A DNA stretch of 64,000 nucleotides. It comes from a virus. Its lineage: Duplodnaviria > Heunggongvirae > Uroviricota > Caudoviricetes. The stretch covers positions 1 to 64,000 of the IMG/VR virus record IMGVR_UViG_3300017971_000019. The stretch is one strand, 5' to 3'. The notes under the pieces were generated by a model. The model saw nothing but the letters and a program-made list of their open reading frames with translations, ran no database searches and was not told where the DNA came from. Positions within the stretch are counted from its first letter, which is position 1. Every line of letters begins with the position of its first letter. Below are positions 26,379 to 64,000 of this stretch, piece after piece. The position numbers and the translations under genes were made by a program.

Positions 26379-26401
26379 TTTTGAAAACGGGAGAGAGACC
26401 G

Positions 26402-27817: not shown

Positions 27818-28374
27818 TGGGCATCATCGAGCAGTACGCGACAGGCAACAAGCTGAACATCGGGTGTGGCACAGACTGTCGAGACGGCTGGGTGAACGTG
27901 GACTTCCACGGCGCTGTTGGGTCGGACTATCAGTTCGACCTCAGGAGCAGGTGGTCGCTGTTCCAGAACAGCACCTTCGACACGGTGCTGGCCTCGCACG
28001 TCCTAGAGCACTTCTCTGGGCCGGACCTGTTCCACGTCATGTTCGAAGCCGGTCGCGTTCTGCGACCAGGCGGGCGGCTCCTCGGAATCGTCCCATATGC
28101 AACGAGCGAGATCTTCTACGCCAACCCGTTCCACAAGCAGGCGTGGACGGAGAGAACTCCGATGCAGTTTGACCGGCGGCTCTATCATTCCGGCGGCGGG
28201 CCATCGTCCCTGCACGCAGACCAGGGAATGAAGCTTCAGCCGTGGGACGTGGAGTGTGTGTATCTTAGGCCGGCGGAGGGGTGGGAGGACGAGCCCGACA
28301 TCCAGGCGGCAGCGAGGAAGTACCTCAACGTGATTGACGAGATGCACTTCGTCATGAAGCTGGTGGAGGAGTAA
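27817..28374 (+). CDS. class-I SAM-dependent methyltransferase (185 aa)
   Basis: ATGA overlap with the upstream gene. Motifs LNIGCGTDC, VLASHVLEH and LRPGGRLLGIVP. Confidence 0.7.
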   Translation: MGIIEQYATGNKLNIGCGTDCRDGWVNVDFHGAVGSDYQFDLRSRWSLFQNSTFDTVLASHVLEHFSGPDLFHVMFEAGRVLRPGGRLLGIVPYATSEIFYANPFHKQAWTERTPMQFDRRLYHSGGGPSSLHADQGMKLQPWDVECVYLRPAEGWEDEPDIQAAARKYLNVIDEMHFVMKLVEE

Positions 28375-47589: not shown

Positions 47590-50500
47590 ATGGCAAAGCT
47601 ATACCTCGATCCAGAGACAGGCGAAGAAGTCACAGCGAACGAGTTCAGGAGGCGTCGAGCCAGGAGGCAAGCCGCCTCTGAGGGGCAACCTATCGCTGAC
47701 TTCATGTCCCCGACGCGTCAGCTACTTGGGATCCCAGAGCCTGGGACCATGTTCTCTACCGAAGAGCAGAAGGACGTTCCAGAGGGTCATCTGTCTGGGT
47801 ATAGGAAGAGGAAGACTTACCTCGATCCGGCCACCGGAGAAGAGGTTGATGAGATTGAGTTCCGTGCCCGCAAGGCGAAGCGTGAGCGTGAGAAGGAAGA
47901 GCTAGATAAGAACGCAGCGGAGCGGAAGAGGGCCGAGGAGATAGCGGCGAAGGACCGCGAGATTGCGGAGAGGGTCACCCAGGGGATCCCGTTCGAGCCG
48001 CTTCGGAAGCTTGCCGCGTCGAAGCCAGCACGCCTTGCCATGGAGACCGCCACGGGGCTACCCCGCACCATCGGTTTGGACTTCCTCCTTGGCCCAGCCG
48101 AGTCTGACGTTCAGTTGCTGGGCGCCGGCGAGAGGGCCGCGACGAGGGCTGGCCGCAAGCGCGGCAGGGCCATGATGCCGACGGTTGGTGGTGGCGGAGT
48201 TCCTGGCGTCCCGGACATCCCGACCGGACTAGAGGCTGATGAGGACAGGTACGTCACAGATCTCCCGACCGGCGTCAAGGAGCTTGGCGACAGGACATGG
48301 GCGTCCGACCTAACCCAGGAGACCATCGACAAGATCAAGGCGATCCAGCTACCAGGCAGGAACCCGTTCACCGACGAGCCGCTCGCTGAGGGCGAGCAGC
48401 CGTACGCGTCTGTCGGCGGAAGTGTCGGGGTCTCGCCAAGGGTCGCTGAGGCCCTTCGCGATCCGTTCATCTACAACAACGAGGTCGAGTTCTCGCGTAC
48501 CGCCAGGTGGAGGTCCGGGATTGAGGAGGCCATTCGTCCAGCCATGTTCGGCGCTGGGGAGAGCTTCGAGACAGCGAAGGATGTCGCGCTCCCAGCCGCT
48601 GTTGCGTACGGCGCAGTTAGGCGACCATGGCACACGATTCCTGCTATCGCTGGTATCGAGCTTATGTCCATCCTTGGCGAGAAGGGCGCGAGGGCGGCTT
48701 CACAACACCTAGGCGAAGACGAAGAGCGGATGGCCCAGATCGGGCGAGAGATTCCGATGGCCCCTGCCGGCCTGAAGGTCGGCCCAGCATTGACGAAGGC
48801 GGGTCTCAGGGCTACATCTCCCCTACTGGGGAAGGCGAAGACTCGCAAGTGGCTTGCGCGGGGCGCTAGGACCAACAACAGTCGCGAAAGGTCCATTGAC
48901 CTTGAGGTGCAGCGAGTCACCGGGAAGACTCTGCTCCAGACTCTCCGAGACGTTGGGCGTGGCGCTAAGTGGTGGACTCAGGAGAGGACCACCGATGGCC
49001 CGTTCATGGCCATGAGGCGTGAGCTAGGTGCTCGTAAAGATCTGGCTAAGGGCTTCCAAACTCCGTACGCGAGGCGCGGCATCACTCAGGAAACAGCGGA
49101 GAAGCTGAGAGACCTCCAGGATCCGCGCTGGAGGGATAAGGCTGACTGGTCACAGCCTGTTGGGGAGAGGGGCGACTTCCTCGGATGGAGGGCGAATAAG
49201 CAGGGCAAGCTGGAGCCGGTCTACGCGCCGGCATCTCCAGTCAGAACTGATGCCCCGCCTGGCCCAGGCAGGGGTGTCATCTACGACCAGGAAGGCAACG
49301 TCAAGGACACGTATGACCTGGACGCGCAGGGCAAGCCTGTCGGTGCGTCTGGAGGAGTAGACGTTCCCGAAGCCGTTCGTCGCTACGCGCCGATGACCGC
49401 TGGGTACATCGCCCAGGGCATGACATTCTCGAAGTGGCCACTCCCTCTTGGAAGGTTCGCAGCCGGTCGTTTTGCAAACCTCGGTGCCAGAAGGCTTGTC
49501 TCCAGAATGCTGGAGGGTGTGAGGAGGAAGAAGCCCGCCCGCAACGTTGAGGCGTTCGACGCGGAGGCCAACGAGTTCGTGATGGTCCCCGAGGACGCAC
49601 TAATCAACAACCCTGCGAAGTACAAGACCAAGGGTCAGGGTGCGCGAATCCTCAAGGAGAGGGACGCTCTTCGTAAGGCGAGGGAGAAGGAAGCCGATCA
49701 GGCTCGCAAGGCCAAGGAAAAGGCGGACGCTGAGGCGAAGAAGGAGCAGGAGAAGCTCCAGAAGGCCGTAGAGGACGCGATCAAGCAGGCTGAGGCTGAG
49801 CAGCAGTCTCGCCAGGGCATGTCCTCGACGCTCTCCCCGCAGGAGGGCTCCAAGATCATGGAGATCATGGAGCACCAGGTTGCGGTAGAGCGCGTCATGA
49901 AGGAGATGGGCGTTGACCGCGTAGAGGCGGAGAGGATCCTCAAGCAGCGCGGCGATGTTACTGCTCCAGAGACTCCTATCGAGTCCGCGAAGTTCAAGTC
50001 TGGAGATATCACAGAAGCCGATATCTTGAAGGCTGCTCAGGATGGCGCGACCCCGGAACAGCTTCGCGCCATGCGCGAGAAGCTCGCCCAGAAGGGTGAG
50101 CCAACGAAGCCGGCAGAGCCTCCAAAGCCTGAGCCTCCTGCGGAGCCTGTCGCAGAGCCTGCCCCAACGAAGCCGAAGGCTCCCGAGGGTGAAGGCGGAG
50201 CCGAGACCGTTGAGTCTCTTGGTGGGACGGGACATCTCTCGAAGGGCCAGCTTGGTGCCTTCAGGCAGAGAGTGGAGATGGGCGAAGACCCGGTCACCGT
50301 CCTGAAGCAGATCAACGAGTACAGGCGGAAGAAGGGACAGTCGGTTCCAGAGTCGAAGCCTACTGAGCCGGCGAAGGCGCCGCCTGCTGAGCCTCCAGCG
50401 GACACGTCGCTCGACAGGACAAGCGGGACTATCCGCACGCGTCGAAAGAAGCAGGAGCGAGACAGGAATCTCGGTGAGGACGCCCCCGAGGACGCAGCCG

Positions 50501-53500
50501 TGTTTGAGCCCATCGTAAAGGGTCAGGAGGTTGGAGACGGAGTCAGGATCGGTGACACCTACGTAGACGTATCGGGCGAGACTCCACGCACTGTTCGCGT
50601 CGAGGGACAACTAGACACGCGTGGGAAGATCCGCCTTCATCTCGTTGACGCAAAGACGGGAGACTGGGTCTTGGGTGAGCCGACGAACGGGCACAGTTTC
50701 CTGAAGGGGCTTAGAAAGGACATCAAAGACGGCCTGATCGAGAAGCCAGCCGAGAGGCCAACCAAGCCAACCGCTCCGAAGGGCGGGAAGTCCGGTAAGG
50801 CTCAGGAGCCGTTCGACACGACCACGCCTGAGGGTCGCGCAAAGGCGTTCGCTCGCGAAGGTGGTCCTACCGACGCCGAGTGGAACCAGATGGGCGGCAA
50901 CATCGCGAAGCGTGCGTGGCTTGAGTCGCAGGGGAAGACAGGCGAGCCTCGCATGACCGGGCCTACGCCGGAAGGGCTTGAGGGGCCGGCGGGCAAGGCT
51001 CTCTCCGAGACGCAGACGCCTCCGACAGAGAAGCCGTCGAAGGGGAAGGGCAAGAAGAAGAAGGGCAAGCCTCGTCCAGGAGTCATCCGCAAGGGTGACG
51101 TTGTCGAGTTCGCGGACGGGACTCGCGGGATCGTCAAGGGCAAGGGAAGGAGCGGGGGCCTCAAGGTTCAGGTCGGAGAGACGACTCGTCTCGCCACACC
51201 GGACCAGGTGAAGAAGGTCGAAGCGAAGGCTCCGACTCCAGAGGAGCGCCAGGCTGCGCTCGACAAGGTCAAGGAACTCGGTGAAGGCAACAGGGGAATG
51301 CTGGAGCGCGAGTTCTACGAGTCCGGCCCAGAGGCGGCTGTCATTCTGGGCACGGAGAAGATGGGCCTCGAAGAGCCGGTAGTCCGCTCGTTCATCGAAT
51401 CCCTCCCTGAGACGAGGCCCCCAGCCACCCCAGCCGAAGCCGCTGTCGAGATCACGAAGGGCAGCTTCAAGGGCCAGAAGGGTGTCCCAATCGGGGAGGC
51501 CGACGCCAAGGGCGTGACCAACGTCATGCTCGAATCCGGCGAGGTCCAGCCCTTCAAGGCCGGCGAGTTCAAGGTGCTCAGGGGATCCGGGAAGGACGCA
51601 GATATTGCGGCCACCATCAAGAAGGCCGAGGAGGACGCTGGGATCGAGTGGGGAGAGCCCCTAAAGGGCCCTGAGAAGGCCCCAGAGGCTCCAGGAGCGC
51701 CTGTAGAGGGCAAGAAGGCCCCAGAGGCCGGGAAGCCGGCTACGGGCCGTAGGGGGGCTTGGAGCGGCCTTGACGCGGCTGTTCGAGAAGGGGACCAGGC
51801 GAGGGCCAGCAGCATCGCCCGAGGGGCTGTCAAGGACCCCGAGGCCAGCGCCGTGGTCGGCGGGCAGGGTGTCAGGGTCGGGGACGTGATCGAGTCCGGG
51901 CCGCACGCCGGGAAGATGGTTCTGGAGGTTCAGGACGGGGCCGTCGTCCAGATGACCAAGAAGAAGTTCACCGGGGGTGGGGGTCGCTACCAGGTCGGAC
52001 GGGTGACCACCGTCGGGGAACTCACCGCCCGCCGTGCCCGCCCGAACTACCAGGGCTACTACTCGCAGCTTGAGAGGGTGCTGGAGACTCCACACGTTCA
52101 GGAAACTCAGGTTGCCCACGACTGGCTCCGCTTCCTCAAGAAGCGCAAGCGCGGCGTGACTGCCGACGAACTCTACTGGACAGGCCTAGAGGAGTTCCTG
52201 AAGTCGAAGAAGCCGTGGGAGCGAGTAACCAAGGGCAAGCTCCTTCAGTACCTCAAGGACAACAAGGTTGAGTTGTCCGAGTGGAGGCAGGGCGACATCC
52301 ACCAAATCGACTTCAATAGCCCGGCCCAGGTGGACGCGTACGTTCGTATGTGGGAGCGCAGGGCTAGGGAGTCCGGTGTCTACACGGAGCAGGAAGTCCG
52401 CAACATCGGTGCCGCGATGCGTAACGACCCGATGTCTAGGATTGACCAACTCAGGGAGGACATCACGAAGCCTGAGTACGGCGACTACAAGGAACCGGGC
52501 GGAACGAACTACCGCGAGTTCATCGTGACGATCCCGTCGAAGAGTGTCCCGACTCCACTCCGCTATCGCGTCGAGAGCATGGACAGGTCCATTCCCCCGG
52601 AAAAGAAGGCGAGGGTGGACGAGCTAAACGAGGAGAAGGGCGCACTGGAAGCCGCCCTGGTCACAGAGTTCGGCGCAGTCTTCCGAGTGAGGAGGGGCGA
52701 GCCGAGAGTCAAGCCGCGCCACCTCAAGGATAAGGATCGAATCCTAGAGATCAACAAGGAGATCCAGAAGATCCGAGAAGAGGGCGGGGAACTCTGGACC
52801 GTCGAGTCTTACTGGGCAGACAACGGAGTGCAGGCGAAGTCTCCAGGGACAGGAGGGACTTACAAGTCCAAAGCGGAGGCAAAGGCGGCAGCGGAGAAAC
52901 TAGCCAAGGAGAAGCCAACCCACGGCAGGCTTCACGCCAAGTGGGACGCACCACACTTCTCGCATCTCAACGCACAAGGGGGCATCCTCTACCACATCCG
53001 CATGACGGACAGGATCGACCCGGCAACCGGAGAAAAGATCCTCTTCGCTGAGGAGTTCCAGTCCGATGCCGCATGGGACGCCAAGAAGAAGGGAGTAAGG
53101 AAGCCAAACAAGGCCTGGCAGAAGGATCTGGAGAGGTTCAACGAGCTTAGCGATAGGAATCGAGAGATCAGGAACAAGCGCGACACCTCTTCCCTGACTA
53201 AGGACGAGAAGCGTGCGCTCAAGGCGGAGTACGAGCGAAACTCCGAAGAGATGCAGCGCATCAACAACAAGTACGGCGAACACCCAGGCTCTGGCGTACG
53301 TGGCTTCATGGGTCGGAAGGACGTGCCTACCGAGATGCCGTACATCGAGTCCACCAACAAGTGGCTCGACCTGGCCACGAAGCGATTCATCAAGATGGCC
53401 GTAGAGGAAGGCTACGATCAGGTCCGCTTTACTTCCGGCTCGATGCAGACTCGTCGCTACGACCTCTCTCAGAGGGTGGATGAGGTCCGTTGGGATCCCG

Positions 53501-56500
53501 CAGAGAAGAGGCTAGAGGGATACAAGGACGGCGAGAACATCCTCAACGAGTACGATGTCCCTGCTGAGAAGCTCGCGGACTACATCGGTGAGGAACCGGC
53601 TGCGCGGCTCAGGAGGGCGGCGCAGAACTGGAAGGAGCCCGACCCGCTTGGTGGATGGGGGATCGAGCAGGCAAGGCGACCAGGCGAGTTCTACGTCATC
53701 GACCCGAATGGCCAGTACGTCTACACCAGGGAGGGTAAGAGGGACCTCTTCTACGGTAAGGATGAGGCCAGGAACTACATCGAGGAATCCATTCGTGAGT
53801 CTGGCGACACAGTGAGCCAGATCCCGGCAATCTCTGGACAGGATCTCTCGATGGGCTCCACTGGCCTCGCGAAGCTCTACGACGTGATGATTCCGCAGTC
53901 CTTCAACCGCGTCCTCAAGCCGTTCAGGACTCAGGGTGAGACCATCTACCGCCTAGAGGGAGACCGCCTGACGAAGACGGTCGAGGGCGCGAAGGGACCG
54001 AAGCTCGAAGAAGGGCAGATGGGGGAGAATTCGTACACCAAGAGGTACGAGGTCAGGGAGCACCCGGATCAGGCTCTGGCAAACCAGGGCGCAATGGCCA
54101 TCTATGATCTGGGCACCGAGACGTGGGCGAGGTCCACTGACCCACGTATGCCTATCGATCCTGATCTTATGGCGATGAGAAAGCGCCAGGGGGTAACGGA
54201 CACCACTGGAGCTAGGGCCAACTACTTCAAGAGCGCAGCCGACGCACGTCGCGTAGCGTCTGAGATGAACCTCGACTACGCTCACGACAGGATGGCTGAT
54301 GGCGTTCTTAGCCGCTTCAAGTACAACGTCGTTGATGCGAAGACAGGCAAGATCGTCAGGACGGTCAATGAGCCCTGGCAGACGGTGGACGCTGTGCGGG
54401 AACTCGAAGGCAAGAGTGGCCGCGAGTACGTTGTAGAGCCTGCCGGCGAAACCGTACACACCATCAGGATCCCGGACGAACTCAAGCGCCAGGTCGAGAA
54501 GGAAGGGTTCCCTCAGTACAAGATCGGCAAGGAAGACCTCGTAGAGACCCCGATCACGACGGAAGACGTGCGCATGGCTCTGCCAGAGGCGCTGCGTCCA
54601 CTCCTCAAGAGGGCCACGAGGACGGAGACCAGGCCGGCGGGGAAGGGGAAGGGAGAGGTTCGCGCAGACGCGAAGATGGGACTCCGTGCCGGCGACTGGT
54701 ACATCGACACTCCTCACGGTGGAAGGATCATCATCAAGCAGAACGGGTTCATCAGGATCGAGAACCCGGAGCAGTCGCTGGTCGGATACTCGCCGGAAGT
54801 CATCGCAGACGTGAAGGCCGGCAAGCGCGGCGCACTGGGCCGCATGGAGACGCCAGGCCAGGGTCCGCTGGTTCCGAAGTACCGCCGCAAGTACGGCATC
54901 GACCGCGACATGCAGATGCGCATCCTCAACGCGGGAGTCATCCCGCACGAGATGGGCCACATCTTCATCGACTACTTCGCGAGCCCCAGGGAGAAGGCAC
55001 GCATCGAATCCTGGTTCAGGGAGGAGATGGAGGCGAAGGGCCTAGAGAAGTATGACGAACTGTTCGCTGAGGGCTTCAGGGAGTGGTTCGAGTCCTACCG
55101 CTGGAAGAAGAAGCCTCGCAACGCTGTCGAGAGGGTGTACAAGGCGATCTACGAGTTCGTTGCGAACGTCTACGACACCTTCCGCCCGACAATCGAAGGC
55201 CAGTACAGGAAGGTCGCCCAGGGCAAGCCGTTCAAGCGTGGTCGCCACCAGGATGGATGGGTAGGAAGGACTGCTAAGGAGGCGTACCAGATCGCGGCTC
55301 GCGAGGTCGGAGACAGCGAAGCCAACTTCATGAAGTGGTTCAAGAAGTCTGTCGCCAACACCCAGTGGGACCAGATGAGCAAGGGCCAGATGGGCGGTCT
55401 CAAGCTTGGCAAGCACCCAGAGGGCTACCCGCACTACGGCCACGACAAGATGCCGTTGGAGCTATACCACGCGACCATCGCGAAGGCAGACTTCGACGCG
55501 TTCAAGCCTGGTAGCAGGCCAAGGTACGTGGACCCGGCCAACCCAGACGCCGACTACGGACGTGGCGTGGACGGCATGGGCATCTGGTTCGCAGAGGATG
55601 CCGAGTTCGCGAACTCCAAGCTCCGGTTCGACTGGATGGCTGAGGACATGAGGCGAGGCGGGCCTCCGCCGGACCACAACGCCATCCGCAACCCGGAGGG
55701 CCCCATTCCCGAAGGGGGAAGGATCATTCCCGCTTATCTCTCCCTCCAGAAGCCGCTCTTTGTACGCGAGAGGCGCGATCTCGACTACGAGGTAGCGAAG
55801 AAGTGGGCGCAGATCGAAGCCAAGGATCCCGCAAAGAGTGCGAAGGCCAAGAAGAGGAGCAAGAAGGCGAACAAGGCTCTCCTGAAGGTCGATAGGGACG
55901 TGAGGAACTACGTCAACGAGCTTGCCGACAAGTACGCCGTTCCGAAGGGTGGTGGAATCACGTTCCAGGACAGGCTGCTTATCGCCTACGACAGGATCAA
56001 CGCTGTCGAGCGTGCCAAGCTCATGGAGTACCGCAGGGCGGGTGAAAAGGCTAGGCTGGAAGCCGCTATCGCTGAGGCAGAGATGACCGGCAACCCGGAG
56101 GCGTACCTACAGACCCTCAGGCGCGGAGACCCGAAGGACATCGCGAGGGCCAAGAAGGCTCTCCAGTCCGAGGGCTACGACGGGTTCCTCGTGGGCGACG
56201 ACATGGGCTTCGGTCGCGCATGGGTGGTATTCGAGGGCGAGCAGATCAAGTCCTCCAGGGCGAACGTCGGGACGTACGACCCGAAGAACCCTGAGTACCG
56301 CCACATGATCGAGCCTGAGCGTGCGAAGAAGCTCAAGACCAGGAAGCACCTTCCAACAAGGCGGGAGTTCGCAGAGGCAGTCCAGAACACCAAGGGCGCG
56401 GCGATCACAGAGGATGGGCTCATCATGGAGCTTCAGCGTTGGCAGAAGCCAGACCAGGCTGGAGCACTCTCCATCAGGACCGGGGTCTTCTACCTACCTA

Positions 56501-59500
56501 AGGGTGACCGCAAGGCCAGCGCTTACAGGATCACTCCGAACTCGAAGCACACCGGGGCTGGTATCGCCTACGGCGGAACCGATAAGGTTGAGGGGCAGAC
56601 CCTCATCCGCAAGCCTCTGTTCGTGCGCGGAGCTACCGGAGGCAGGGCCCCAGAGGAAGCCTTCAAGATCATCAAGGGAGCCCCAGCGTTTTCGAAGCTC
56701 GAAGACCAGCTTTGGTCGATCCACATGAGCGACTACTCGATGCGCGAGTGGCCGGACATGATCCACGCGAAGGCTCGTGCAGAGAAGGCGGCGAAGGCCT
56801 ACTCCGAGGCTCGTGCAGAGCACGGCCAGGACTTCACGAAGTACGAGGACATCTACAACGAGTACCACGACGCCCAGAGGCTCTTGGCAACGACCCGCGA
56901 CAAGATCCAGACCAGTGAGATCGAGAGGGTCCTACAGGACTTCGGCGGCGACCCGTCCATGGCTCGCGACATTCTGGCCAACTCCAGGGAGGGCAACCAG
57001 CTTCGCTACGCGATCCAGGAGAACATCATCGCCCACGTCGTGAGGGACGAGGGCTTCGACGCTGTGGTCGGCTTCACGAAGGGCAAGAACGGAGCGAAGT
57101 TCTCCGAGGTCTTCGACGTTCGCGAGACCACGTACCCGGACACCGGGTATGTCCAATCTGACATCCACCCGTCATTCATCCCCGAGAGCGTCGGTCGCTA
57201 CCAGGTCGGGCAGAAGAAGGGCGACACGAGCACCCCAGAGTTCAAGAAGTGGTTCAGGAAGTCCACCATCAAGGACGGGAACAAGCCGAGGCCGGTGTAC
57301 CACGGTACTGGCAAGGAAGGATTCTTCGAGTTCGAGTGGCCAGAGCACGACCTCGGGTTCCACGTTGGGTCCAGGGCGCAGGCAGTCGAGGCCGGTGTCA
57401 CGAATAGGATCAGCAGGCTCAGCGAAGAGATGAGGGCTCTCCGGGCGGAGGCGCTTCCGTACGCACAAGCCGGGAAGGAAGTGCCGAAGGAGATCAAGGA
57501 CAAGATCGCCAAGAACGAGAAGGAGGCGAAGACGAGCGGGCGGATTCCTGGACAGGAGGGCTTCGAGGAACCACGCATGATCGAACTGTACGCTCGCGCA
57601 GAGAACCCGCTCCGTCTCCATGACGTTGGAGACAAGTGGGGCTACTACGCGTACGACTACCTACCAATCGGAAAGACCGTACAGGGCGGCAAGCCTGGGT
57701 TTACTCGCGAAGAGGTCCAGATGCTGAGGGATCTACCTAGGAGGTTCAGGCCGGCGGAGACAGTCAAGCTGATCAAGAGCAAGGGCTACGACAGCATCGT
57801 GTACAAGAACGAGCACGAGGGCAGGGTTTACGACAGAGCGACAGGAGAGCTAAAGTCCCGCGATGACTCCTACATCCTCTTCGACAAGAACCAGGTGAAG
57901 CAGACGAGCAACGTCACATGGGGAGAGGGCGGAGACTTCCGCTACCAGGTCGGGCCGAAGGGTGCTGGCAGCAACCTGAAGAGGTCACTGGAGAAGCTGG
58001 AGTCCACCCGCAAGGCCCGCAAGCCGATCAAGGGTGTGATGGACAGGAAGGCAGACCTCTCCCCTAGGTTGGTGAAGAAGATGGACAGGAAGGCTACTCC
58101 GAGGTTCTCGGTCGGAGAGGTCTCCGATGTCCTGCCGGAAGCGCTCAGGGGTATGCCCGAGATCTACAGGGACCAGTTGACGGACGCCCTCACCTCCAAG
58201 AGGTTCGAGGTCAAGATGACCGAGGACACGAAGAGTGACTGGAAGGGCACGATCTACCAGTACAGGCTTAGTCCGGCGCGTCCAAAGCACGCGAGGGTGG
58301 AGCCTCCGAGGTGGGAGGGCGAAGAGCCTAACGCCTGGTACGACCCAGAGATCGCGGAACTCAAGAGTACATCAGAGGGCGGGTTCCGACAGATCGGGTA
58401 CGACCTGAAGCCTGGCTGGACACGCAGCGTGGAAGACCTCACCTCTGGTGACGGTACGACCTACTTCCGTGGCATGAGCGCAGAGGAGTGGGTGGAGATC
58501 CAGCGCACAGGCAAGATCAGGTCACAGGGTGCCTACAACCTCGGTGACAAGCAAGTCGGCAAGACCTACTACTCGGTGAGCCCAGGACAGGCGGAGTCCT
58601 ACGCCGCCGGCTTCCAGCCGTGGCAGAGGACCCCAGCGCACGGGAAGAACGCGTACATCGTGGAGATCAGGAACCCGAAGAGGAAGGGCACCCTAGAGCA
58701 GGGTGATGAGCGTGGGGTTCCGGGCGAGATCAACGCCTCAGAGATCGTCAACGTGTACGAAGGCGTGCCGTATTACTTCAAGGACGGCAAGGTCGAGTAC
58801 ACGCCAGATACCGTCAGGGGGCCAGGTGGAGAGGGTTGGGTGAGCACCCACGTCGAGGGCTCTCGCTACTCCCCAAGCACACACGTTGCATGGCGCAAGA
58901 TCGATGGCGAGAAGGTAGCCAGGCTCCGCGCAGAGGCGGAGACGGTGACCCTCACGGACGGCGCGATGGCTGTCGAGCCAGCGGCCAGGTACGCGCTCTC
59001 AGAGGCTGGACGCAAGAGGCTCCGTGAGAAGCAGATGGAAGAGGCCAGGAAGATCGCTGGCGAGGGTGCCCTGGTCGATGAGGCGACGATGGAGAAGTAC
59101 TTCCGCGACGAGGCCTCCATCGCCCGCGAGGTCCACGACGACTTCTCCCGTCTCGGCTACAAGGAGAGCTTCGCTGACCATCTCAGGGCCATCAAGACGA
59201 ACGCCGACGAGTACTACATGAGGAGCCTCGACTTCACCACGATGTGCAGGAAGAGGTACGTCCTCGGCGCAACCATCGACGCCATCCAGCAGAAGCTTGG
59301 CCGTCCTCTCGACGCCAAGGACATCATGAGGGTGGGAGCCCAGATGAGGCTCCACGGCATTGAGACCGCCTGCGGTCCATGCTACGTAGAGTCGAAGCGT
59401 CTCCAGAACGCTGCCATCATGGAGCAGTTGAAGACCGGCTGGTACAGGCCAATGCCGAAGATCGACCCGAAGACCGGCAAGAAGATGCGCGATGACAACG

Positions 59501-62067
59501 GGAAGATCATCAAGGTCAAGACCTGGATTCCACCGATCCCGAAGAAGCTCCACGACAAGCTCCTCACCTCCGATGGCATCGCTGAGATCGCTGCGAACTA
59601 CCCACAGGAGCGCATCAAGATGGGCTACCTGTACGGGGACAGGAAGGTGAAGGCCCCAGAGGTGCGCGTCTCCTACAAGGGAGAGATCCTCAGCAAGGTG
59701 GACAAGGAGGGCGGGCTCACTGACGGAATGGTAGCCAAGATGAACAAGCGTTCCGGCCTCAGGTGGCAGTCCTGGTCGGACTTCGAGGTTCCGCACATCA
59801 TCGACGCCATGCAGGCAATCGCGGACATGCACCTACGCGGGCTCAAGGGCCACGCCTACACGAAGGTCCCCGAGTTCGTTGAGGTGCTCGCGCCTACCGG
59901 CCTGGCAATCAACATGAGCATGATCCCGAAGGACATCGGGATCAGGAACGGAAAGCTCTGGTTCAACGATGCCGAGTCCTTCCCGTTCGACTTCGGGCTC
60001 AGGATGAGGAAGAAGTACAAGAACGTGGGCTTCGAGACCATCGGCGTGAACGACGCGCAGATCAAGATGGCCCTGGCCGATCCTCGCATCGACTACGTGA
60101 TCCCGTACCACCAGTCCGGCCTCAACAGGAACTACATGAAGATGGTGGGCATGGGCAAGTGGCAGGACTACACGGGTGAGCAGAACTTCACCGTGCGCGG
60201 GACCACCAAGCAGTTGAGCACTGGCAAGTGGCAGGGCAAGGCCTCCAGCAAGAAGGTTCTCTGGGACGAGTACAAGGGCGACCTGAACCTCCTCGACAAG
60301 CTCGCGAAGGAGCGCGGCATCGATCCTCCGTTTGTGAGGATGAGGCACTGGAAGGGATACGAGAAGCTTCTGAACGACCGCCGCAGCTTCATCGAGAATG
60401 GCAAGGGCTACATCAACCAGGACGTGGTGAAGCCAGAGTTCGATATGCGTGCGATCAAGAGGATCATGCGCGAGTACACCCCACCAGACATCAAGCCTGC
60501 CGGCGTGGTCGTGGACGAGTTCGTGAAGGGCGAGATCCCAGCGGAGCCGAGGCAGAGGTACTCCCTTGGCCTACCGAAGAAGACGGAGGGCGTGACTAGG
60601 GGAGGCAGGACCGTCACCCCGAGGAACAAGCCTTCCCAGCCGGCTAGGAGGATCATGGAGCACATGGCTCCTAACCTCACCGGGAAGACGATCCTCGACT
60701 ACGGGGCGGGGTACGGGGTTGACCTCAAGCACTACGAGGGTAGCGGCATCTTCAAGGGCGTCCAGGGCTACGACCCGAACCACATGCAAACGAAGCCTCG
60801 CAAGGCAGACATCGTGACGAACACCTTCGTGGCCAACGTGCTGGAGCCCGTTGACCGCCATGCTATGCTTCGCTCCGCATACAAGCACGCGAACGAGGCA
60901 CTCATCGTGAGTGTGCGTGCTGACAAGATCCCCGGAACGCCGCACCTGGATGGGGTGATCACCAAGAAGGACACGTTCCAGAAGTCCTACAAGAAGGGAG
61001 AGCTTGTGAAGGAACTGGGAGAACTGTTCGGCAAGGAGAACGTCGAGGAGCTTCGCTACGGCGTCTCTGGGGCGCAGATGGCCATCGTCACGAAGCCGAA
61101 GGGGAAGCTGAAGGGCGAAGATCAGCCCAGGTTCTCGATCACGGACCCGGTCCTCGTCGCAGGCGGATCCGCAGGGCGCACCTCCATCCCAACCGCGAAG
61201 GTCACCGAGCCAGCATTCACGATCAAGGCGACCCCGAAGGAGCCGATCAGGTTCACGAGGGGTGACAAGGTGTACAGGCTGTCCGAGCGTGGAGTGGCCC
61301 GCCTCATGGGCGTCTCCGACAGCTACAAGCTGCCCGAGAACAAGGCGCTGGCTCGCACGGTTCTGGGGAACGGCGTCCCACCGCCGCTCGCAAGGGCCGT
61401 CGTGCTGCCGCTCCTCAAGGGCATCAAGAAGCCGACAGCCGTGACCCTCTTCTCTGGCGGGAGCCTGGTAGAGGAAGGGCTGAAGGATAAGGTCCGCTTC
61501 CTGGGCGGACACGAGATCAGCGCGGACATCGCCGGGGTGGCTCGTTCGAACGGACACAACACCCGCATCGTGGACGTGACGAAGGCTGACTTCTCGGACT
61601 TCGCAGGGGCTGACTGGCTCCACGCCTCCCCGGTGTGCAAGAACTTCTCGGCGGCGAAGAACCAGTCCGGTGAGGTTCCTCTGGACATCCGCTCCGCAGA
61701 GGCTGTGGTCAGGGCAATCGATCAGGTGGGGCCAACAGTGGTCACCATCGAGAACGTGAAGGGCTACCGTGGCTCGGAGGCCCTACAGTTGATCATCGAG
61801 AAGCTCAAGAAGGAGGGCTACAACGTGGACGCCGCCGTATACGACGCGGCTGACTACGGAACCCCTCAGCACCGCCAGAGGCTGCTCGTGAGGGCCATCA
61901 AGGGCAAGCTTCTTCCGCCTCCTCCGATGAAGCAGTCGCACGTCTCCTGGTGGGACGCTGTGAAGGATCTGAAGCACCCGCTCGATCCGAAGGGCCTGGC
62001 GGACTGGCAGAAGCGTAGGCTGGCTCCCCTGGAGCACATGATCGTGGGGGTGGGCGATGCCCCTTAG
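47590..62067 (+). CDS. giant multidomain 'polyvalent' virion protein (4825 aa) with several identified domains
   Basis: Uninterrupted ORF of 14,478 nt with coding-like GC at third codon positions. Its start follows the stop of the upstream gene after a 3-nt gap. Identified elements: an N-terminal tandem 23-aa repeat; a K/E/A/P-rich linker; an HEMGH zincin motif at nt 54946-54960; a possible ADP-ribosyltransferase motif set; a repeated GYD module; a class-I SAM methyltransferase at about nt 60640-60990; and a C-terminal C5-cytosine DNA methyltransferase at about nt 61430-61930 with motifs FSGGS, PVCKNFS, ENV and QHRQR. Confidence 0.85.
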   Translation: MAKLYLDPETGEEVTANEFRRRRARRQAASEGQPIADFMSPTRQLLGIPEPGTMFSTEEQKDVPEGHLSGYRKRKTYLDPATGEEVDEIEFRARKAKREREKEELDKNAAERKRAEEIAAKDREIAERVTQGIPFEPLRKLAASKPARLAMETATGLPRTIGLDFLLGPAESDVQLLGAGERAATRAGRKRGRAMMPTVGGGGVPGVPDIPTGLEADEDRYVTDLPTGVKELGDRTWASDLTQETIDKIKAIQLPGRNPFTDEPLAEGEQPYASVGGSVGVSPRVAEALRDPFIYNNEVEFSRTARWRSGIEEAIRPAMFGAGESFETAKDVALPAAVAYGAVRRPWHTIPAIAGIELMSILGEKGARAASQHLGEDEERMAQIGREIPMAPAGLKVGPALTKAGLRATSPLLGKAKTRKWLARGARTNNSRERSIDLEVQRVTGKTLLQTLRDVGRGAKWWTQERTTDGPFMAMRRELGARKDLAKGFQTPYARRGITQETAEKLRDLQDPRWRDKADWSQPVGERGDFLGWRANKQGKLEPVYAPASPVRTDAPPGPGRGVIYDQEGNVKDTYDLDAQGKPVGASGGVDVPEAVRRYAPMTAGYIAQGMTFSKWPLPLGRFAAGRFANLGARRLVSRMLEGVRRKKPARNVEAFDAEANEFVMVPEDALINNPAKYKTKGQGARILKERDALRKAREKEADQARKAKEKADAEAKKEQEKLQKAVEDAIKQAEAEQQSRQGMSSTLSPQEGSKIMEIMEHQVAVERVMKEMGVDRVEAERILKQRGDVTAPETPIESAKFKSGDITEADILKAAQDGATPEQLRAMREKLAQKGEPTKPAEPPKPEPPAEPVAEPAPTKPKAPEGEGGAETVESLGGTGHLSKGQLGAFRQRVEMGEDPVTVLKQINEYRRKKGQSVPESKPTEPAKAPPAEPPADTSLDRTSGTIRTRRKKQERDRNLGEDAPEDAAVFEPIVKGQEVGDGVRIGDTYVDVSGETPRTVRVEGQLDTRGKIRLHLVDAKTGDWVLGEPTNGHSFLKGLRKDIKDGLIEKPAERPTKPTAPKGGKSGKAQEPFDTTTPEGRAKAFAREGGPTDAEWNQMGGNIAKRAWLESQGKTGEPRMTGPTPEGLEGPAGKALSETQTPPTEKPSKGKGKKKKGKPRPGVIRKGDVVEFADGTRGIVKGKGRSGGLKVQVGETTRLATPDQVKKVEAKAPTPEERQAALDKVKELGEGNRGMLEREFYESGPEAAVILGTEKMGLEEPVVRSFIESLPETRPPATPAEAAVEITKGSFKGQKGVPIGEADAKGVTNVMLESGEVQPFKAGEFKVLRGSGKDADIAATIKKAEEDAGIEWGEPLKGPEKAPEAPGAPVEGKKAPEAGKPATGRRGAWSGLDAAVREGDQARASSIARGAVKDPEASAVVGGQGVRVGDVIESGPHAGKMVLEVQDGAVVQMTKKKFTGGGGRYQVGRVTTVGELTARRARPNYQGYYSQLERVLETPHVQETQVAHDWLRFLKKRKRGVTADELYWTGLEEFLKSKKPWERVTKGKLLQYLKDNKVELSEWRQGDIHQIDFNSPAQVDAYVRMWERRARESGVYTEQEVRNIGAAMRNDPMSRIDQLREDITKPEYGDYKEPGGTNYREFIVTIPSKSVPTPLRYRVESMDRSIPPEKKARVDELNEEKGALEAALVTEFGAVFRVRRGEPRVKPRHLKDKDRILEINKEIQKIREEGGELWTVESYWADNGVQAKSPGTGGTYKSKAEAKAAAEKLAKEKPTHGRLHAKWDAPHFSHLNAQGGILYHIRMTDRIDPATGEKILFAEEFQSDAAWDAKKKGVRKPNKAWQKDLERFNELSDRNREIRNKRDTSSLTKDEKRALKAEYERNSEEMQRINNKYGEHPGSGVRGFMGRKDVPTEMPYIESTNKWLDLATKRFIKMAVEEGYDQVRFTSGSMQTRRYDLSQRVDEVRWDPAEKRLEGYKDGENILNEYDVPAEKLADYIGEEPAARLRRAAQNWKEPDPLGGWGIEQARRPGEFYVIDPNGQYVYTREGKRDLFYGKDEARNYIEESIRESGDTVSQIPAISGQDLSMGSTGLAKLYDVMIPQSFNRVLKPFRTQGETIYRLEGDRLTKTVEGAKGPKLEEGQMGENSYTKRYEVREHPDQALANQGAMAIYDLGTETWARSTDPRMPIDPDLMAMRKRQGVTDTTGARANYFKSAADARRVASEMNLDYAHDRMADGVLSRFKYNVVDAKTGKIVRTVNEPWQTVDAVRELEGKSGREYVVEPAGETVHTIRIPDELKRQVEKEGFPQYKIGKEDLVETPITTEDVRMALPEALRPLLKRATRTETRPAGKGKGEVRADAKMGLRAGDWYIDTPHGGRIIIKQNGFIRIENPEQSLVGYSPEVIADVKAGKRGALGRMETPGQGPLVPKYRRKYGIDRDMQMRILNAGVIPHEMGHIFIDYFASPREKARIESWFREEMEAKGLEKYDELFAEGFREWFESYRWKKKPRNAVERVYKAIYEFVANVYDTFRPTIEGQYRKVAQGKPFKRGRHQDGWVGRTAKEAYQIAAREVGDSEANFMKWFKKSVANTQWDQMSKGQMGGLKLGKHPEGYPHYGHDKMPLELYHATIAKADFDAFKPGSRPRYVDPANPDADYGRGVDGMGIWFAEDAEFANSKLRFDWMAEDMRRGGPPPDHNAIRNPEGPIPEGGRIIPAYLSLQKPLFVRERRDLDYEVAKKWAQIEAKDPAKSAKAKKRSKKANKALLKVDRDVRNYVNELADKYAVPKGGGITFQDRLLIAYDRINAVERAKLMEYRRAGEKARLEAAIAEAEMTGNPEAYLQTLRRGDPKDIARAKKALQSEGYDGFLVGDDMGFGRAWVVFEGEQIKSSRANVGTYDPKNPEYRHMIEPERAKKLKTRKHLPTRREFAEAVQNTKGAAITEDGLIMELQRWQKPDQAGALSIRTGVFYLPKGDRKASAYRITPNSKHTGAGIAYGGTDKVEGQTLIRKPLFVRGATGGRAPEEAFKIIKGAPAFSKLEDQLWSIHMSDYSMREWPDMIHAKARAEKAAKAYSEARAEHGQDFTKYEDIYNEYHDAQRLLATTRDKIQTSEIERVLQDFGGDPSMARDILANSREGNQLRYAIQENIIAHVVRDEGFDAVVGFTKGKNGAKFSEVFDVRETTYPDTGYVQSDIHPSFIPESVGRYQVGQKKGDTSTPEFKKWFRKSTIKDGNKPRPVYHGTGKEGFFEFEWPEHDLGFHVGSRAQAVEAGVTNRISRLSEEMRALRAEALPYAQAGKEVPKEIKDKIAKNEKEAKTSGRIPGQEGFEEPRMIELYARAENPLRLHDVGDKWGYYAYDYLPIGKTVQGGKPGFTREEVQMLRDLPRRFRPAETVKLIKSKGYDSIVYKNEHEGRVYDRATGELKSRDDSYILFDKNQVKQTSNVTWGEGGDFRYQVGPKGAGSNLKRSLEKLESTRKARKPIKGVMDRKADLSPRLVKKMDRKATPRFSVGEVSDVLPEALRGMPEIYRDQLTDALTSKRFEVKMTEDTKSDWKGTIYQYRLSPARPKHARVEPPRWEGEEPNAWYDPEIAELKSTSEGGFRQIGYDLKPGWTRSVEDLTSGDGTTYFRGMSAEEWVEIQRTGKIRSQGAYNLGDKQVGKTYYSVSPGQAESYAAGFQPWQRTPAHGKNAYIVEIRNPKRKGTLEQGDERGVPGEINASEIVNVYEGVPYYFKDGKVEYTPDTVRGPGGEGWVSTHVEGSRYSPSTHVAWRKIDGEKVARLRAEAETVTLTDGAMAVEPAARYALSEAGRKRLREKQMEEARKIAGEGALVDEATMEKYFRDEASIAREVHDDFSRLGYKESFADHLRAIKTNADEYYMRSLDFTTMCRKRYVLGATIDAIQQKLGRPLDAKDIMRVGAQMRLHGIETACGPCYVESKRLQNAAIMEQLKTGWYRPMPKIDPKTGKKMRDDNGKIIKVKTWIPPIPKKLHDKLLTSDGIAEIAANYPQERIKMGYLYGDRKVKAPEVRVSYKGEILSKVDKEGGLTDGMVAKMNKRSGLRWQSWSDFEVPHIIDAMQAIADMHLRGLKGHAYTKVPEFVEVLAPTGLAINMSMIPKDIGIRNGKLWFNDAESFPFDFGLRMRKKYKNVGFETIGVNDAQIKMALADPRIDYVIPYHQSGLNRNYMKMVGMGKWQDYTGEQNFTVRGTTKQLSTGKWQGKASSKKVLWDEYKGDLNLLDKLAKERGIDPPFVRMRHWKGYEKLLNDRRSFIENGKGYINQDVVKPEFDMRAIKRIMREYTPPDIKPAGVVVDEFVKGEIPAEPRQRYSLGLPKKTEGVTRGGRTVTPRNKPSQPARRIMEHMAPNLTGKTILDYGAGYGVDLKHYEGSGIFKGVQGYDPNHMQTKPRKADIVTNTFVANVLEPVDRHAMLRSAYKHANEALIVSVRADKIPGTPHLDGVITKKDTFQKSYKKGELVKELGELFGKENVEELRYGVSGAQMAIVTKPKGKLKGEDQPRFSITDPVLVAGGSAGRTSIPTAKVTEPAFTIKATPKEPIRFTRGDKVYRLSERGVARLMGVSDSYKLPENKALARTVLGNGVPPPLARAVVLPLLKGIKKPTAVTLFSGGSLVEEGLKDKVRFLGGHEISADIAGVARSNGHNTRIVDVTKADFSDFAGADWLHASPVCKNFSAAKNQSGEVPLDIRSAEAVVRAIDQVGPTVVTIENVKGYRGSEALQLIIEKLKKEGYNVDAAVYDAADYGTPQHRQRLLVRAIKGKLLPPPPMKQSHVSWWDAVKDLKHPLDPKGLADWQKRRLAPLEHMIVGVGDAP

Positions 62068-62227
62068 CGAGTACTACGGCGGGAAGGGCGCAAAGGTCAT
62101 GAAGGACATGGTCAAGCGCTATGGCAAGAAGAAGGGCAAGCGGGTGTTCTACGCGACCCACAACAAGCAGAAGAAAAAGGACTCCGTGGCTGGTATGCTG
62201 GAGTCACACTTTGGAGGTGGACGATGA
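62057..62227 (+). CDS. small lysine-rich basic protein (56 aa)
   Basis: Open frame overlapping the stop of the giant gene. Under 60 aa, so absent from the ORF track. Confidence 0.35.
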   Translation: MPLSEYYGGKGAKVMKDMVKRYGKKKGKRVFYATHNKQKKKDSVAGMLESHFGGGR

Positions 62228-62376
62228 AGGGTAAGGGCAAGGCCATTCTGAAGGCCGGAACAGGCGGAGGCGGCAAGGGAAAGCCGTCCCTCGCAGCAAA
62301 GCCGTACGTGGGCAACAAGGGTGGTCAGGTCCGTTCGGGCAAGGCCTCCAACGCCAGCAAGTACTCGAAGAGGTGA
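62224..62376 (+). CDS. small Lys/Gly-rich basic protein (50 aa)
   Basis: ATGA overlap with the upstream gene. Confidence 0.35.
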   Translation: MKGKGKAILKAGTGGGGKGKPSLAAKPYVGNKGGQVRSGKASNASKYSKR

Positions 62377-62380
62377 CACC

Positions 62381-62956
62381 ATGCCAGCGCCACTGTTGAA
62401 CTCTGCATTCAGTGCAATCAGGTCAGGGATGTCGAAGGCCCCAGACATGTCTGGCTACGCTGGAGCCGGCGGCGCTGAGAAGTGGATGGCTGAGTCCGGC
62501 GGCAACATGGATCAGTACAACCAGCAGATGAAGGCCTACAAGGGTCAGGGTCAGGGGCAGCCGCCGCCACAGGGGCAGCCGCCGTCAAAGCAGGGCGGGC
62601 AGGGCGCGAGCTATGCGATGCCGAGGCCTGCGCCACAGAACGGACAGGAGCAGCGTACAGCGCCACCGCCTCCACCACCACCACAGCCAGGAGGTGGTGG
62701 AAGCTTTATGGATCGCTTCAGGAACATTGCGCAGGCTAGCGCAGGCTTGCCGACCTCTGGAGGGGACGCTTTGCTAAGCGCGGTCACAGGGATTCCTGGG
62801 CTTGGCAGCATAGCGAGTATGCTTGGCGGACTCTTTGGGGGTGGCCCGATGAGGGGCCCTTCTGCTGCTGACGGTCAGCGCATCAACGCTGAGAGATTGG
62901 CTGCGGCGCAGGGAGACCCGAATGCGCCACAGGGATACGGTGGATACGGAGGATAG
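62381..62956 (+). CDS. Gly/Gln/Pro-rich low-complexity protein (191 aa)
   Basis: The ATG at 62381 lies 4 nt after the upstream stop. ORF track (62321..62956, trimmed). Confidence 0.45.
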   Translation: MPAPLLNSAFSAIRSGMSKAPDMSGYAGAGGAEKWMAESGGNMDQYNQQMKAYKGQGQGQPPPQGQPPSKQGGQGASYAMPRPAPQNGQEQRTAPPPPPPPQPGGGGSFMDRFRNIAQASAGLPTSGGDALLSAVTGIPGLGSIASMLGGLFGGGPMRGPSAADGQRINAERLAAAQGDPNAPQGYGGYGG

Positions 62957-62958
62957 AA

Positions 62959-63126
62959 ATGAAGGGTTACAACAAGCACATGAAGACGGGCCAGCAGCCC
63001 TCGGGCTCCAGGATCAAGACCACCCGTCCCCCAGGCAAGGCCACCAAGGGCTCTCAGAGCAACAGCGCCAAGCCCAACATGAAGACCGGGCCGAACTACG
63101 GCGGGCCCCACGAGAAGGAGATGTAG
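62959..63126 (+). CDS. small lysine-rich basic protein (55 aa)
   Basis: Open frame immediately after the upstream stop. Confidence 0.35.
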   Translation: MKGYNKHMKTGQQPSGSRIKTTRPPGKATKGSQSNSAKPNMKTGPNYGGPHEKEM

Positions 63127-63128
63127 CC

Positions 63129-63503
63129 ATGGCGAATACGAAGAGGGGTCAGGCGGTCGAGTCCTTCGACAACATGATGAAGGAAGGCGTCAGAAAGAGG
63201 CGGGCGAAGACGAAGAGGGGCCAGGCGGTCGAGTCCTTCGACAAGATGATGAAGGAGGGCGTCAGAAAGAGGCGGAAGGGGCAGACCCTCTCCGAGTACA
63301 CCAAGGGGCTCAAGAAGAAGAAGAAGAAGCCGTCCCTGGACGAACTCTCCCTAGGCAGAACAAGCGTGTCCGACATGGCGAAGAGGGCGAGAAGGGGCGT
63401 CATGAGCAGCGGCGGTACGCGTGCCAAGAAGAAGAAGGGCGGCATGTCGATTGACGACAAGCTCAGGTGGGGCGTGTACAAGAGGAAGAGCGGTAAGTCA
63501 TGA
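63129..63503 (+). CDS. lysine/arginine-rich basic protein (124 aa) with a 24-aa tandem repeat
   Basis: TKRGQAVESFD(N/K)MMKEGVRKRR(AK/KG) appears twice at nt 63138-63281 with a 72-nt period. Also a KKKKKKP run. Confidence 0.5.
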   Translation: MANTKRGQAVESFDNMMKEGVRKRRAKTKRGQAVESFDKMMKEGVRKRRKGQTLSEYTKGLKKKKKKPSLDELSLGRTSVSDMAKRARRGVMSSGGTRAKKKKGGMSIDDKLRWGVYKRKSGKS

Positions 63504-63721
63504 AGAAGCCAGTTGGCAAGAAGCCAGGCCGCAAGCGGAAGAAGAGCCTCAGTCTCGACGCCCTCTCTGAGGCGCTGGAGAATGAGAAGGCCATGAAGGT
63601 CCCCGCTCCACCTCGGAAGAAGCGCAGGAGGGCCCCGAAGATGAAGCAGGGGAAGTGGGGCACTCAGGAACCAGCAGCGAAGCCCAACTACAAGGGCAAT
63701 CGCATGGGAGAGGGCTACTAG
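63500..63721 (+). CDS. small lysine/arginine-rich basic protein (73 aa)
   Basis: ORF track. ATGA overlap. Last plus-strand gene. Confidence 0.45.
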   Translation: MKKPVGKKPGRKRKKSLSLDALSEALENEKAMKVPAPPRKKRRRAPKMKQGKWGTQEPAAKPNYKGNRMGEGY

Positions 63722-63723
63722 GC

Positions 63724-63797
63724 TGGAAGGGGCGGGGGGAGTCGAACCCCCGCTGCCTGGTTCAAAGCCAGGTGCTCTGCCGTTGAGCTACGCCCCT
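63724..63797 (-). tRNA. tRNA-Gln (anticodon UUG), with the CCA end encoded
   Basis: The reverse complement folds as a cloverleaf: acceptor stem AGGGGCG/CGCCCCU, U8, D arm GCUC-AACGGCA-GAGC, anticodon arm CCUGG-CUUUGAA-CCAGG, T arm GGGGG-UUCGACU-CCCCC, and a 3' terminal UCCA. Confidence 0.8.
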
Positions 63798-64000
63798 AGT
63801 AGCAAGCGGTTGCTTCTCCGATGGTAACGCACACGGTCAACTCGCCCCGCCTCCAGATGCTGGTAGCGGGGCCGTTCTTCGTAACGACAACTCCACGCTC
63901 CATGGGGATGACAAGGTGAGAATCCTTCTCGGACTTCAGAACGACATAGCCCGCTTCGCGGCGTGGACGATAGCTGCCGTACTTGCGTTCGCACTCTTGA
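63796..64000 (-). CDS. 3' end of a minus-strand gene that continues beyond the window
   Basis: Open minus-strand frame ending at TAG (63796-63798). It translates to ...ECERKYGSYRPRREAGYVVLKSEKDSHLVIPMERGVVVTKNGPATSIWRRGELTVCVTIGEATACY. A second minus-strand frame is also open, so the call is uncertain. Confidence 0.3.
   Translation of the reverse strand, partial: QECERKYGSYRPRREAGYVVLKSEKDSHLVIPMERGVVVTKNGPATSIWRRGELTVCVTIGEATACY

Follow-up and report, generated by a model that had tools for sequence, protein, structure and literature searches.

A run of lysine-rich small genes behind a giant polyvalent-protein gene of a tailed phage: candidate head-associated or virion-internal proteins

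Small basic proteins in phage structural modules are already known as a kind. The T7 genes for gp6.7 and gp7.3 lie just upstream of the portal gene and encode proteins of about 88 and 99 residues with lysine-rich stretches, and the internal proteins of phage T4 are basic. Gp6.7 is present in twelve copies that bridge the portal barrel and the core, gp7.3 occupies the tail channel in six copies, and both have been resolved structurally in the virion and are ejected at infection (PMC11784390). The T4 internal proteins IPI, IPII and IPIII are found at about 360 copies each in the head and are injected with the DNA alongside the ADP-ribosyltransferase (ART) Alt (PMC9958956, PMC5512222). The polyvalent proteins described by Iyer et al. 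have been argued to be packaged and delivered with the DNA (PMC5512222), and a 2,811-residue polyvalent protein has been detected in phi24B virions by proteomics. Here we analyze six small genes, named p1 to p6, that follow the gene for a giant polyvalent protein at positions 62057–63721 of a 64,000-nucleotide (nt) stretch of phage DNA (IMG/VR record IMGVR_UViG_3300017971_000019, positions 1 to 64,000). This whole stretch is called the window, and all coordinates are positions in it unless another record is named. The cluster consists of real late genes at the 3′ end of the virion-structural operon of this phage. From sequence and analogy, and with about even confidence, we read its products as minor head-associated or virion-internal proteins.

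The likeness to T7 gp6.7 and gp7.3 lies in very small size and in the comparable head-module positions that p1 homologues hold in many phages. The locus differs in that the genes here follow a giant protein instead of the portal. Homology to gp6.7 or gp7.3 was not found: p1–p6 gave chance-level PHROGs matches only (E 0.22), and the members of the p1 family gave no informative match. As in T4, basic small proteins accompany an ART-containing protein. Those of T4 fold, however, and p2, p4 and p6 seem disordered; neither PHROGs nor Pfam returned a match to IPI, IPII or IPIII, and neither a capsid-targeting sequence nor a protease was identified. Protamines and adenovirus protein VII are also strongly basic, small, low-complexity proteins, associated with sperm or viral DNA, but they are arginine-rich, whereas the cluster proteins are lysine-rich (K 16–22%, R 4–12%). 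A preliminary description of this DNA had likened the cluster to protamines, adenovirus protein VII and phage internal basic proteins; this likeness does not extend to homology, and the composition is lysine-rich, not arginine-rich. The resemblance to P1 DarB, phi24B gp47 and the polyvalent proteins of Iyer et al. belongs to the upstream giant gene (ART-PolyVal and DNA methylase domains, position among late virion genes), not to the small proteins. Phage phiKT gp28 is comparable as a phage-encoded, orphan-like, strongly positive protein of 56 residues. Gp28, however, is an amphipathic membrane-associated helix, whereas p2, p4 and p6 are Gly/Pro-rich with a low hydrophobic moment, and the p1 family is found in head-assembly rather than lysis surroundings.

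Six coding genes behind the giant gene

The six genes lie back-to-back on the + strand, with gaps of at most 4 nt and three start/stop overlaps. p1 (62057–62227; 56 residues, isoelectric point (pI) 10.2) starts at an ATG located 11 nt inside the end of the 4,825-residue open reading frame (ORF) at 47590–62067. p2 (62224–62376; 50 residues, net charge +13) overlaps p1 through an ATGA; it is rich in glycine and lysine (K 22%, G 24%) and contains zero acidic residues. After a 4-nt gap follows p3 (62381–62956; 191 residues), a low-complexity protein rich in G, A, P and Q (20%, 14%, 13% and 9%, respectively) with one weakly hydrophobic Gly-rich segment, ALLSAVTGIPGLGSIASML, where the Kyte-Doolittle index reaches its maximum of 1.57. 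p4 (62959–63126; 55 residues, net charge +9), rich in K, G, S, T and P, and p5 (63129–63503; 124 residues, net charge +28) each follow a 2-nt gap, and p6 (63500–63721; 73 residues, net charge +17) overlaps p5 through a second ATGA. The five small proteins, p3 excluded, contain 16–22% K, 4–12% R and 0–10% D+E, with pI values of 10.2–11.1 and net charges of +9 to +28; one copy of each of the six proteins sums to +81. p2 and p4 are probably disordered. In p6, the motifs KKPGRKRKK and PPRKKRRRAPK flank a short acidic helix-like segment. The preliminary description of five short lysine-rich basic proteins behind the giant ORF, overlapping it and interspersed with a 191-residue G/Q/P-rich protein, which is p3, agrees with these ORFs and their composition. 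It had also reported a KKKKKK run, which is present in p5 together with a KKKK run, and a perfect 24-residue tandem repeat, which turned out to be near-perfect: the p5 repeat (63131–63275) has a period of 72 nt in 2.0 copies with 94% identity, and its units A2–R25 and A26–R49 are identical at 22 of 24 residues.

The possibility had been raised that these are non-coding frames in a GC-rich tail region, in other words chance open frames in the purine- and GC-rich untranslated tail of the giant gene. The strand is indeed purine-rich, with an AT skew of 0.24–0.33 across the last 2 kb, high-GC DNA yields many spurious ORFs (75 small basic ORFs in the six frames of the window), and four of the five small proteins are without homologues. 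Against this stand the codon statistics, which pick out exactly the annotated frames. Under a codon model trained on 16 long window genes, with 50-codon windows of known genes as yardstick, the in-frame log-likelihood ratios of p1 to p6 are 0.92, 0.94, 0.35, 0.99, 0.86 and 0.88 bits per codon, while the other two + strand frames score −0.6 to −1.6 (about −1.0 for p1 and about −0.6 for p3); the in-frame and off-frame values of known phage genes are +0.72 ± 0.27 and −0.87 ± 0.30, respectively. The GC content of third codon positions is 0.78–0.93 in the five small genes (0.93 in p4) and 0.63 in p3, compared with 0.78 in the training genes. Among the 75 small basic ORFs, only p1, p2, p4 and p6 combine at least 15% lysine with phage-like codons, p5 having been missed by the scan only because its ORF extends upstream to 193 residues. 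Shine-Dalgarno-like motifs precede the starts clearly for p2–p6 and more weakly for p1, with GGAGG before p2 and p4, and the start/stop overlaps likewise count against chance frames. The gene callers of three public sources predict all six genes, and for p1 the 881 homologous clusters described below already refute a chance origin.

Conservation of the frames had been proposed as a check, and the frames are kept wherever variation is seen. The same phage is present in six public contigs at 99.3–99.9% identity, and no relatives of intermediate identity to it were found. Its few strain variants preserve the reading frames, being an 18-nt in-frame indel in p3 and, in p4, one synonymous change and a TAG-to-TAA change of the stop codon; in addition, the p1 frame has its 881 homologous clusters. 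Phage codon usage, Shine-Dalgarno-like motifs and hundreds of p1 homologues thus speak against the non-coding view, which we regard as exceedingly improbable. The six ORFs are real coding genes, tightly coupled to the giant late gene. Neither promoter-like sites nor + strand terminator-like sites occur within 60000–64000, which fits a single operon with translational coupling. Strains vary in p3 (positions 62552 and 62843–62889): the 18-nt indel falls in its QGQPPP repeat, and one residue is altered (A170T). Of the six public contigs, four start inside this gene, beside the polymorphic site, and the variation may break assemblies there.

The p1 family and its place in head modules

By its sequence, p1 falls into an unnamed phage family of considerable size. 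Five close homologues are 61–84% identical to it, and a profile search covering 1.84 billion representatives returned 881 clusters at E ≤ 1e-3 and 144 at E ≤ 1e-10; p1 itself scores 83 bits (E 5e-27) against a hidden Markov model of 60 family members. The proteins are mostly 42–90 residues long and share an N-terminal core of ~37 residues, MPLSKYFGGxGxKVMxxMKKxYGxxKGKxVFYATANK, followed by a variable, usually strongly basic tail. M1, P2, G11, F31, Y32 and A33 are invariant across the 60 phage sequences. Some members, such as P0045 and P0141, fuse the core to Pro/Gly/Gln-rich tails or to larger regions, and these longer proteins show no known domain and no informative Pfam match. The family as a whole matches nothing in Pfam, PHROGs or NCBIfam, and no PDB entry by sequence. 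An AlphaFold2 (AF2) model of p1, computed from a five-sequence alignment, is a helical hairpin with a predicted local distance difference test (pLDDT) score of 70, reaching 84–88 over residues 11–30; its comparison with the PDB by Foldseek gave nothing at E < 1. Among PDB chains, none resembles p1 or p5 by sequence and none resembles p1 by fold. The closest p1 homologue in a bacterial genome record (L097 4001–4153; 69% identity) comes from a Planctomycetota metagenome-assembled genome (MAG), JBGLNR010000001.1, where it sits 3.87 Mb along a scaffold of 5.97 Mb, immediately preceded by a ribonucleotide-reductase-like ORF and followed by scaffold-like and capsid genes. This copy could be a prophage remnant and a host clue. 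Two weaker copies occur in Phycisphaerae and Omnitrophota MAGs.

The surroundings of the p1 homologues were compared at 76 loci from IMG/VR, or 81 with other sources, which hold 60 distinct p1-like sequences. The nearest large same-strand ORFs match almost only terminase, portal and capsid families of Pfam. Terminase_6N or Terminase_3 was found upstream in 23 of 50 cases and downstream in 6 of 47, and the portal families beside p1 homologues are SU10_portal, P22_portal, Head-tail_con and Portal_Mu; by a local iterative search, the terminase large subunit (TerL) lies upstream in 22 of the 60 loci. The only isolates found to encode a homologue are the pelagiphages HTVC033P (gp81) and HTVC023P. 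In Pelagibacter phage HTVC033P the homologue comes directly after terL, four genes before portal, and in phage ctyzp037 it directly precedes a gene annotated as 'head to tail connecting protein' (portal). The nearest relative of the phage studied here (L038; 34% identity in TerL, 29% in portal and 41% in capsid) carries its p1 homologue between the portal and major capsid genes. In the window, p1 instead stands after the giant gene, about 47 kb downstream of portal and outside the terminase-portal-scaffold-capsid block. At none of the p1 loci elsewhere is a relative of the giant protein encoded within 5 kb. The tie of p1 to head morphogenesis is thus general, and its tie to the giant gene is specific to this phage.

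Other small genes often accompany p1. At least one further small basic gene occurs in the same block at 31 of the 60 loci, although the counts of neighbouring small genes are approximate, coming from a simple ORF-chaining heuristic and a home-made ORF caller. At 21 of the 60 loci there is a gene for a disordered protein of 95–284 residues rich in G, P, Q, N and M, usually right after the p1 homologue and before an acidic protein of ~776 residues. One locus (L010) reads, in order, p1 homologue, 41-residue PAKKK-repeat protein, 44-residue basic protein and 186-residue Ala/Gly/Pro/Glu-rich protein; another (L080) reads p1 homologue, 74-residue G/K-rich, 50-residue K/G/S-rich and 134-residue G/P-rich proteins, so that p2 has a counterpart of like composition and the same length, 50 residues, in the same position. 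The p1-p2-p3 layout is therefore mirrored in other phages, with a likeness that is compositional and positional. Between p3 and the disordered genes beside p1 homologues, phmmer detected no similarity, and tblastn gave one marginal match (L015, E 7e-4). In the first of these two loci, the 41-residue protein (L010 1802–1927) consists nearly entirely of PAKKK/AAPKKK repeats, like a histone H1 tail, and a 70-residue basic protein beside the p1 homologue (L010 1453–1665) matches phrog_20603, of unknown function (1.4e-18).

The large neighbours in these head modules are strongly acidic, with net charges of −43 to −53 for the ~776-residue proteins and −19 to −25 for the scaffold-like proteins. The ~776-residue family is conserved and carries CPxCG...CPAC motifs, and its genes follow p1 homologues and precede scaffold-like genes (L026 5876–8206 and 18 similar loci). 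Pfam, PDB and INPHARED gave no match to this family, and hhalign relates it to portals with a probability of 14%; it is probably an undescribed portal family. Near some p1 homologues a small 'MGCF...STLLT' protein is also encoded. A tblastn search of phage records found no match for it, and we claim no link to gp6.7.

Scans of all six proteins against Pfam, PHROGs and NCBIfam gave only chance-level matches (E ≤ 0.1–1; p3 and p5). In a search of 5.8 billion proteins, p5 found only itself, with no significant family or PDB match, and scans of IMG/VR recovered p3, p4 and p6 in the same phage only and nothing for p2. p2, p4, p5 and p6 form singleton clusters, and the second member of the p3 cluster is the A170T strain variant. 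p2 and p4–p6 are thus lineage-specific Gly/Pro-rich polycations. The idea that p2–p6 are divergent copies of p1 was rejected, as hmmsearch with all filters off gave at most 2.4 bits against the p1-family profile.

The giant neighbour and the phage

The gene upstream of the cluster (47590–62067, + strand), whose stop codon lies inside p1, encodes 4,825 residues with Pfam matches to ART-PolyVal (3.5e-15), DNA_methylase (C-5/Dcm; 4.2e-28) and Methyltransf_23 (a S-adenosylmethionine (SAM) methyltransferase). By these sequence matches, its product is a phage polyvalent protein in the sense of Iyer et al. (2017), and its homologues, at 30–41% identity, carry the polyvalent domains PF18760, PF18798, PF18857 and PF18819. 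Relatives searched with the C-terminal 1,201 residues are 28–41% identical over 26–56% of the query, with one short match at 63%, and sit in the tail/ejection module of a podovirus with an SU10-type adaptor gene. None of the giant-gene relatives retrieved is then followed by a comparable run of polybasic genes. Behind one giant homologue (L090), genes of 191 and 124 residues were considered as relatives of p3 and p5; they are unrelated, and the equal lengths are coincidental. Within the giant gene, positions 58228–58802 differ from a contig of the same phage (L003) by eight nonsynonymous and zero synonymous changes, six of them within ~100 nt (58228–58330), and this stretch may encode a surface of the polyvalent protein that diversifies locally. 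A diversity-generating retroelement was considered as the source of this variation and rejected, with no template-like repeat in the window and no sign of such an element. In a 76-kb contig of the same phage (L004), the first 261 nt do not align and the alignment starts at window position 61103; the mismatch at L004 1–261 may reflect either an artefact of the contig end or structural variation within the giant gene.

The source is a large phage of about 60% GC, seen on contigs up to 92 kb. A distant BLASTN search of 61500–64000 against 50,697 phage records found no match. The + strand operon contains the genes for the terminase large subunit (11311–12966), portal (12939–15143) and major head protein (22523–23575), followed by further structural proteins, and extends as far as the giant gene. 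Enzymes are encoded inside this structural operon, namely a DNA repair exonuclease (17871–19181; phrog_704, 3.5e-114), a radical-SAM/methyltransferase protein (26381–27817) and a glycosyltransferase-like protein (28374–29138), and a DHH phosphoesterase gene (9507–10610) lies just upstream of the terminase gene. At the other end, a convergent, phage-encoded tRNA-Gln(ttg) gene (63724–63797, − strand; identified with ARAGORN) begins 3 nt past the p6 stop and marks the end of the + operon. Just beyond p6, the minus strand of this phage encodes 21 tRNAs (L001 882–6575), among them Lys-ttt, Arg-tct, Arg-cct and Arg-acg.

Possible roles of the cluster proteins

We use the gene order and the p1 family to outline how head-associated or virion-internal proteins could operate here. 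The six genes would be translated by coupling from the giant polyvalent-protein gene onwards. The p1-p2-p3 module would have moved, in this phage, from the head-morphogenesis block to a place behind the giant gene, where three lineage-specific polybasic genes, p4–p6, would extend it. Through its conserved core p1 would bind a partner in assembly, for instance the portal or core, while packaged DNA or acidic head proteins would be contacted by the disordered lysine-rich tails. DNA, polyvalent protein and cluster proteins would afterwards leave the capsid together, a function like that of T7 gp6.7 and gp7.3. Virion presence, DNA or portal binding, and ejection are all steps that we infer. By analogy, the earlier suggestion that these are packaged, virion-associated basic proteins is plausible and has indirect support: the cluster closes the late structural operon, its translation is coupled to that of a polyvalent protein, and such proteins are predicted to be encapsidated, as was shown for one in phi24B; in addition, the p1 family lives in head-morphogenesis modules.

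Several points weigh against placing the proteins in the virion. There is no proteomic, structural or homology evidence that locates any of the six there, and p1 has no PDB match, its AF2 hairpin being of moderate confidence and without a fold match. The cluster lies ~47 kb from the portal gene in this phage, and the head-module argument rests on homologues, whose small-gene counts are approximate and whose ~776-residue neighbours are not confirmed as portals (hhalign 14%). p2 and p4–p6 are orphans for which only composition and position speak, and phage heads leave little room for bulk protein, which limits a charge-neutralising role. Ejection together with the giant protein, as the preliminary description had proposed, finds no support in conservation: the p1 loci elsewhere have no giant relative within 5 kb, and the giant relatives occur without such genes.

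The same facts also fit nucleic-acid binders or assembly cofactors that are made late and are absent from the virion: the cluster sits in the late operon, the p1 family belongs to head modules, and the polybasic tails are disordered. Such proteins could assist DNA packaging or the building of the prohead. One way would be to chaperone the very acidic portal or scaffold proteins, another to compact replicated DNA; they may also bind the host nucleoid or RNA. The strongly acidic nature of the neighbouring large head proteins suits a chaperoning function, and the sequence data fit virion residence and a purely intracellular role alike. On the other hand, small proteins encoded beside portal genes are virion components in T7 (gp6.7 and gp7.3), and so are lambda gpW, whose gene lies between terminase and portal, and SPP1 gp7, whose gene follows portal; coupling to a probably encapsidated polyvalent protein also suggests co-delivery. 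We therefore consider a role confined to the infected cell unlikely, though it deserves to be taken seriously. Bulk condensation of the genome, with hundreds to thousands of copies coating the DNA in the manner of protamines or adenovirus protein VII, draws on the high net charge (+81 summed over the six proteins) and on low-complexity Lys/Gly/Ser/Pro sequences reminiscent of histone H1 tails. Tailed-phage DNA, however, is packed to near-crystalline density without protein, and scans of Pfam, PHROGs and NCBIfam gave no match to adenovirus VII, protamines, histones, HU or T4 internal proteins. The proteins are lysine-rich with only 4–12% Arg, the conserved folded core of p1 is typical of specific interaction rather than of a bulk counter-ion, and p1 homologues are often a single tiny gene in phages on ~40–60 kb contigs. 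Although T4 carries about 1,000 internal protein molecules (PMC9958956), bulk condensation is improbable here.

A function in lysis or at the membrane has also been weighed, in which cationic peptides would disrupt the outer membrane like the disruptin phiKT gp28 and p3 would contribute a membrane-active segment. In favour, gp28 is a cationic peptide of 56 residues that takes the place of spanins (bioRxiv 10.1101/515445), the late operon ends with the cluster, none of the window genes scanned was recognised as a lysis gene, and a stretch of p3 is borderline hydrophobic (Kyte-Doolittle 1.57). The peptide sequences point the other way: the hydrophobic moment (muH) of p2, p4 and p6 is 0.30–0.36 (0.32 for p2) compared with 0.89 for LL-37, and their Gly+Pro content is 21–28%. 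p1 and p5 reach a maximum muH over 18 residues of 0.54–0.58, and the cluster as a whole does not have the character of amphipathic helices. No transmembrane-like segment occurs in the five small proteins, the neighbours of p1 homologues are genes for terminase, portal and capsid instead of lysis, and no endolysin or holin gene adjoins the cluster. A lysis cassette is thus a decidedly improbable reading.

Head-associated or virion-internal proteins remain our preferred reading, and a broader version of it extends beyond this phage. The p1 family, the polybasic peptides and the Gly/Pro/Gln-rich partner may, as a doubtful generalization, represent a widespread and unrecognised head component of tailed phages. 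More specifically, and just as speculatively, they could be disordered polycations associated with the portal or the DNA end that are packaged with the genome and co-ejected with it, here with a 4,825-residue polyvalent effector. What is new is the p1 family and the arrangement of five polybasic genes and a disordered partner coupled to a 4,825-residue polyvalent protein, neither of which is described in the libraries searched. Nothing in these findings overturns current understanding, and the function is assigned by inference. If the products are not virion proteins, the cluster amounts only to fast-evolving lysine-rich orphans at the end of a late operon. If they are, p1 and its partners would add a conserved, abundant family of at least 881 clusters to the short list of small internal or ejection proteins, a group that cryo-EM maps show poorly and that annotations mostly call hypothetical. 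The broader reading, if true, would define a new conserved class of internal virion proteins that ranges from pelagiphages to Planctomycetota-linked phages. If its products are virion proteins, the p1 family would give a handle on protein and DNA organisation at the portal in many uncultured marine and sediment phages, and could show how very large polyvalent effectors are loaded.

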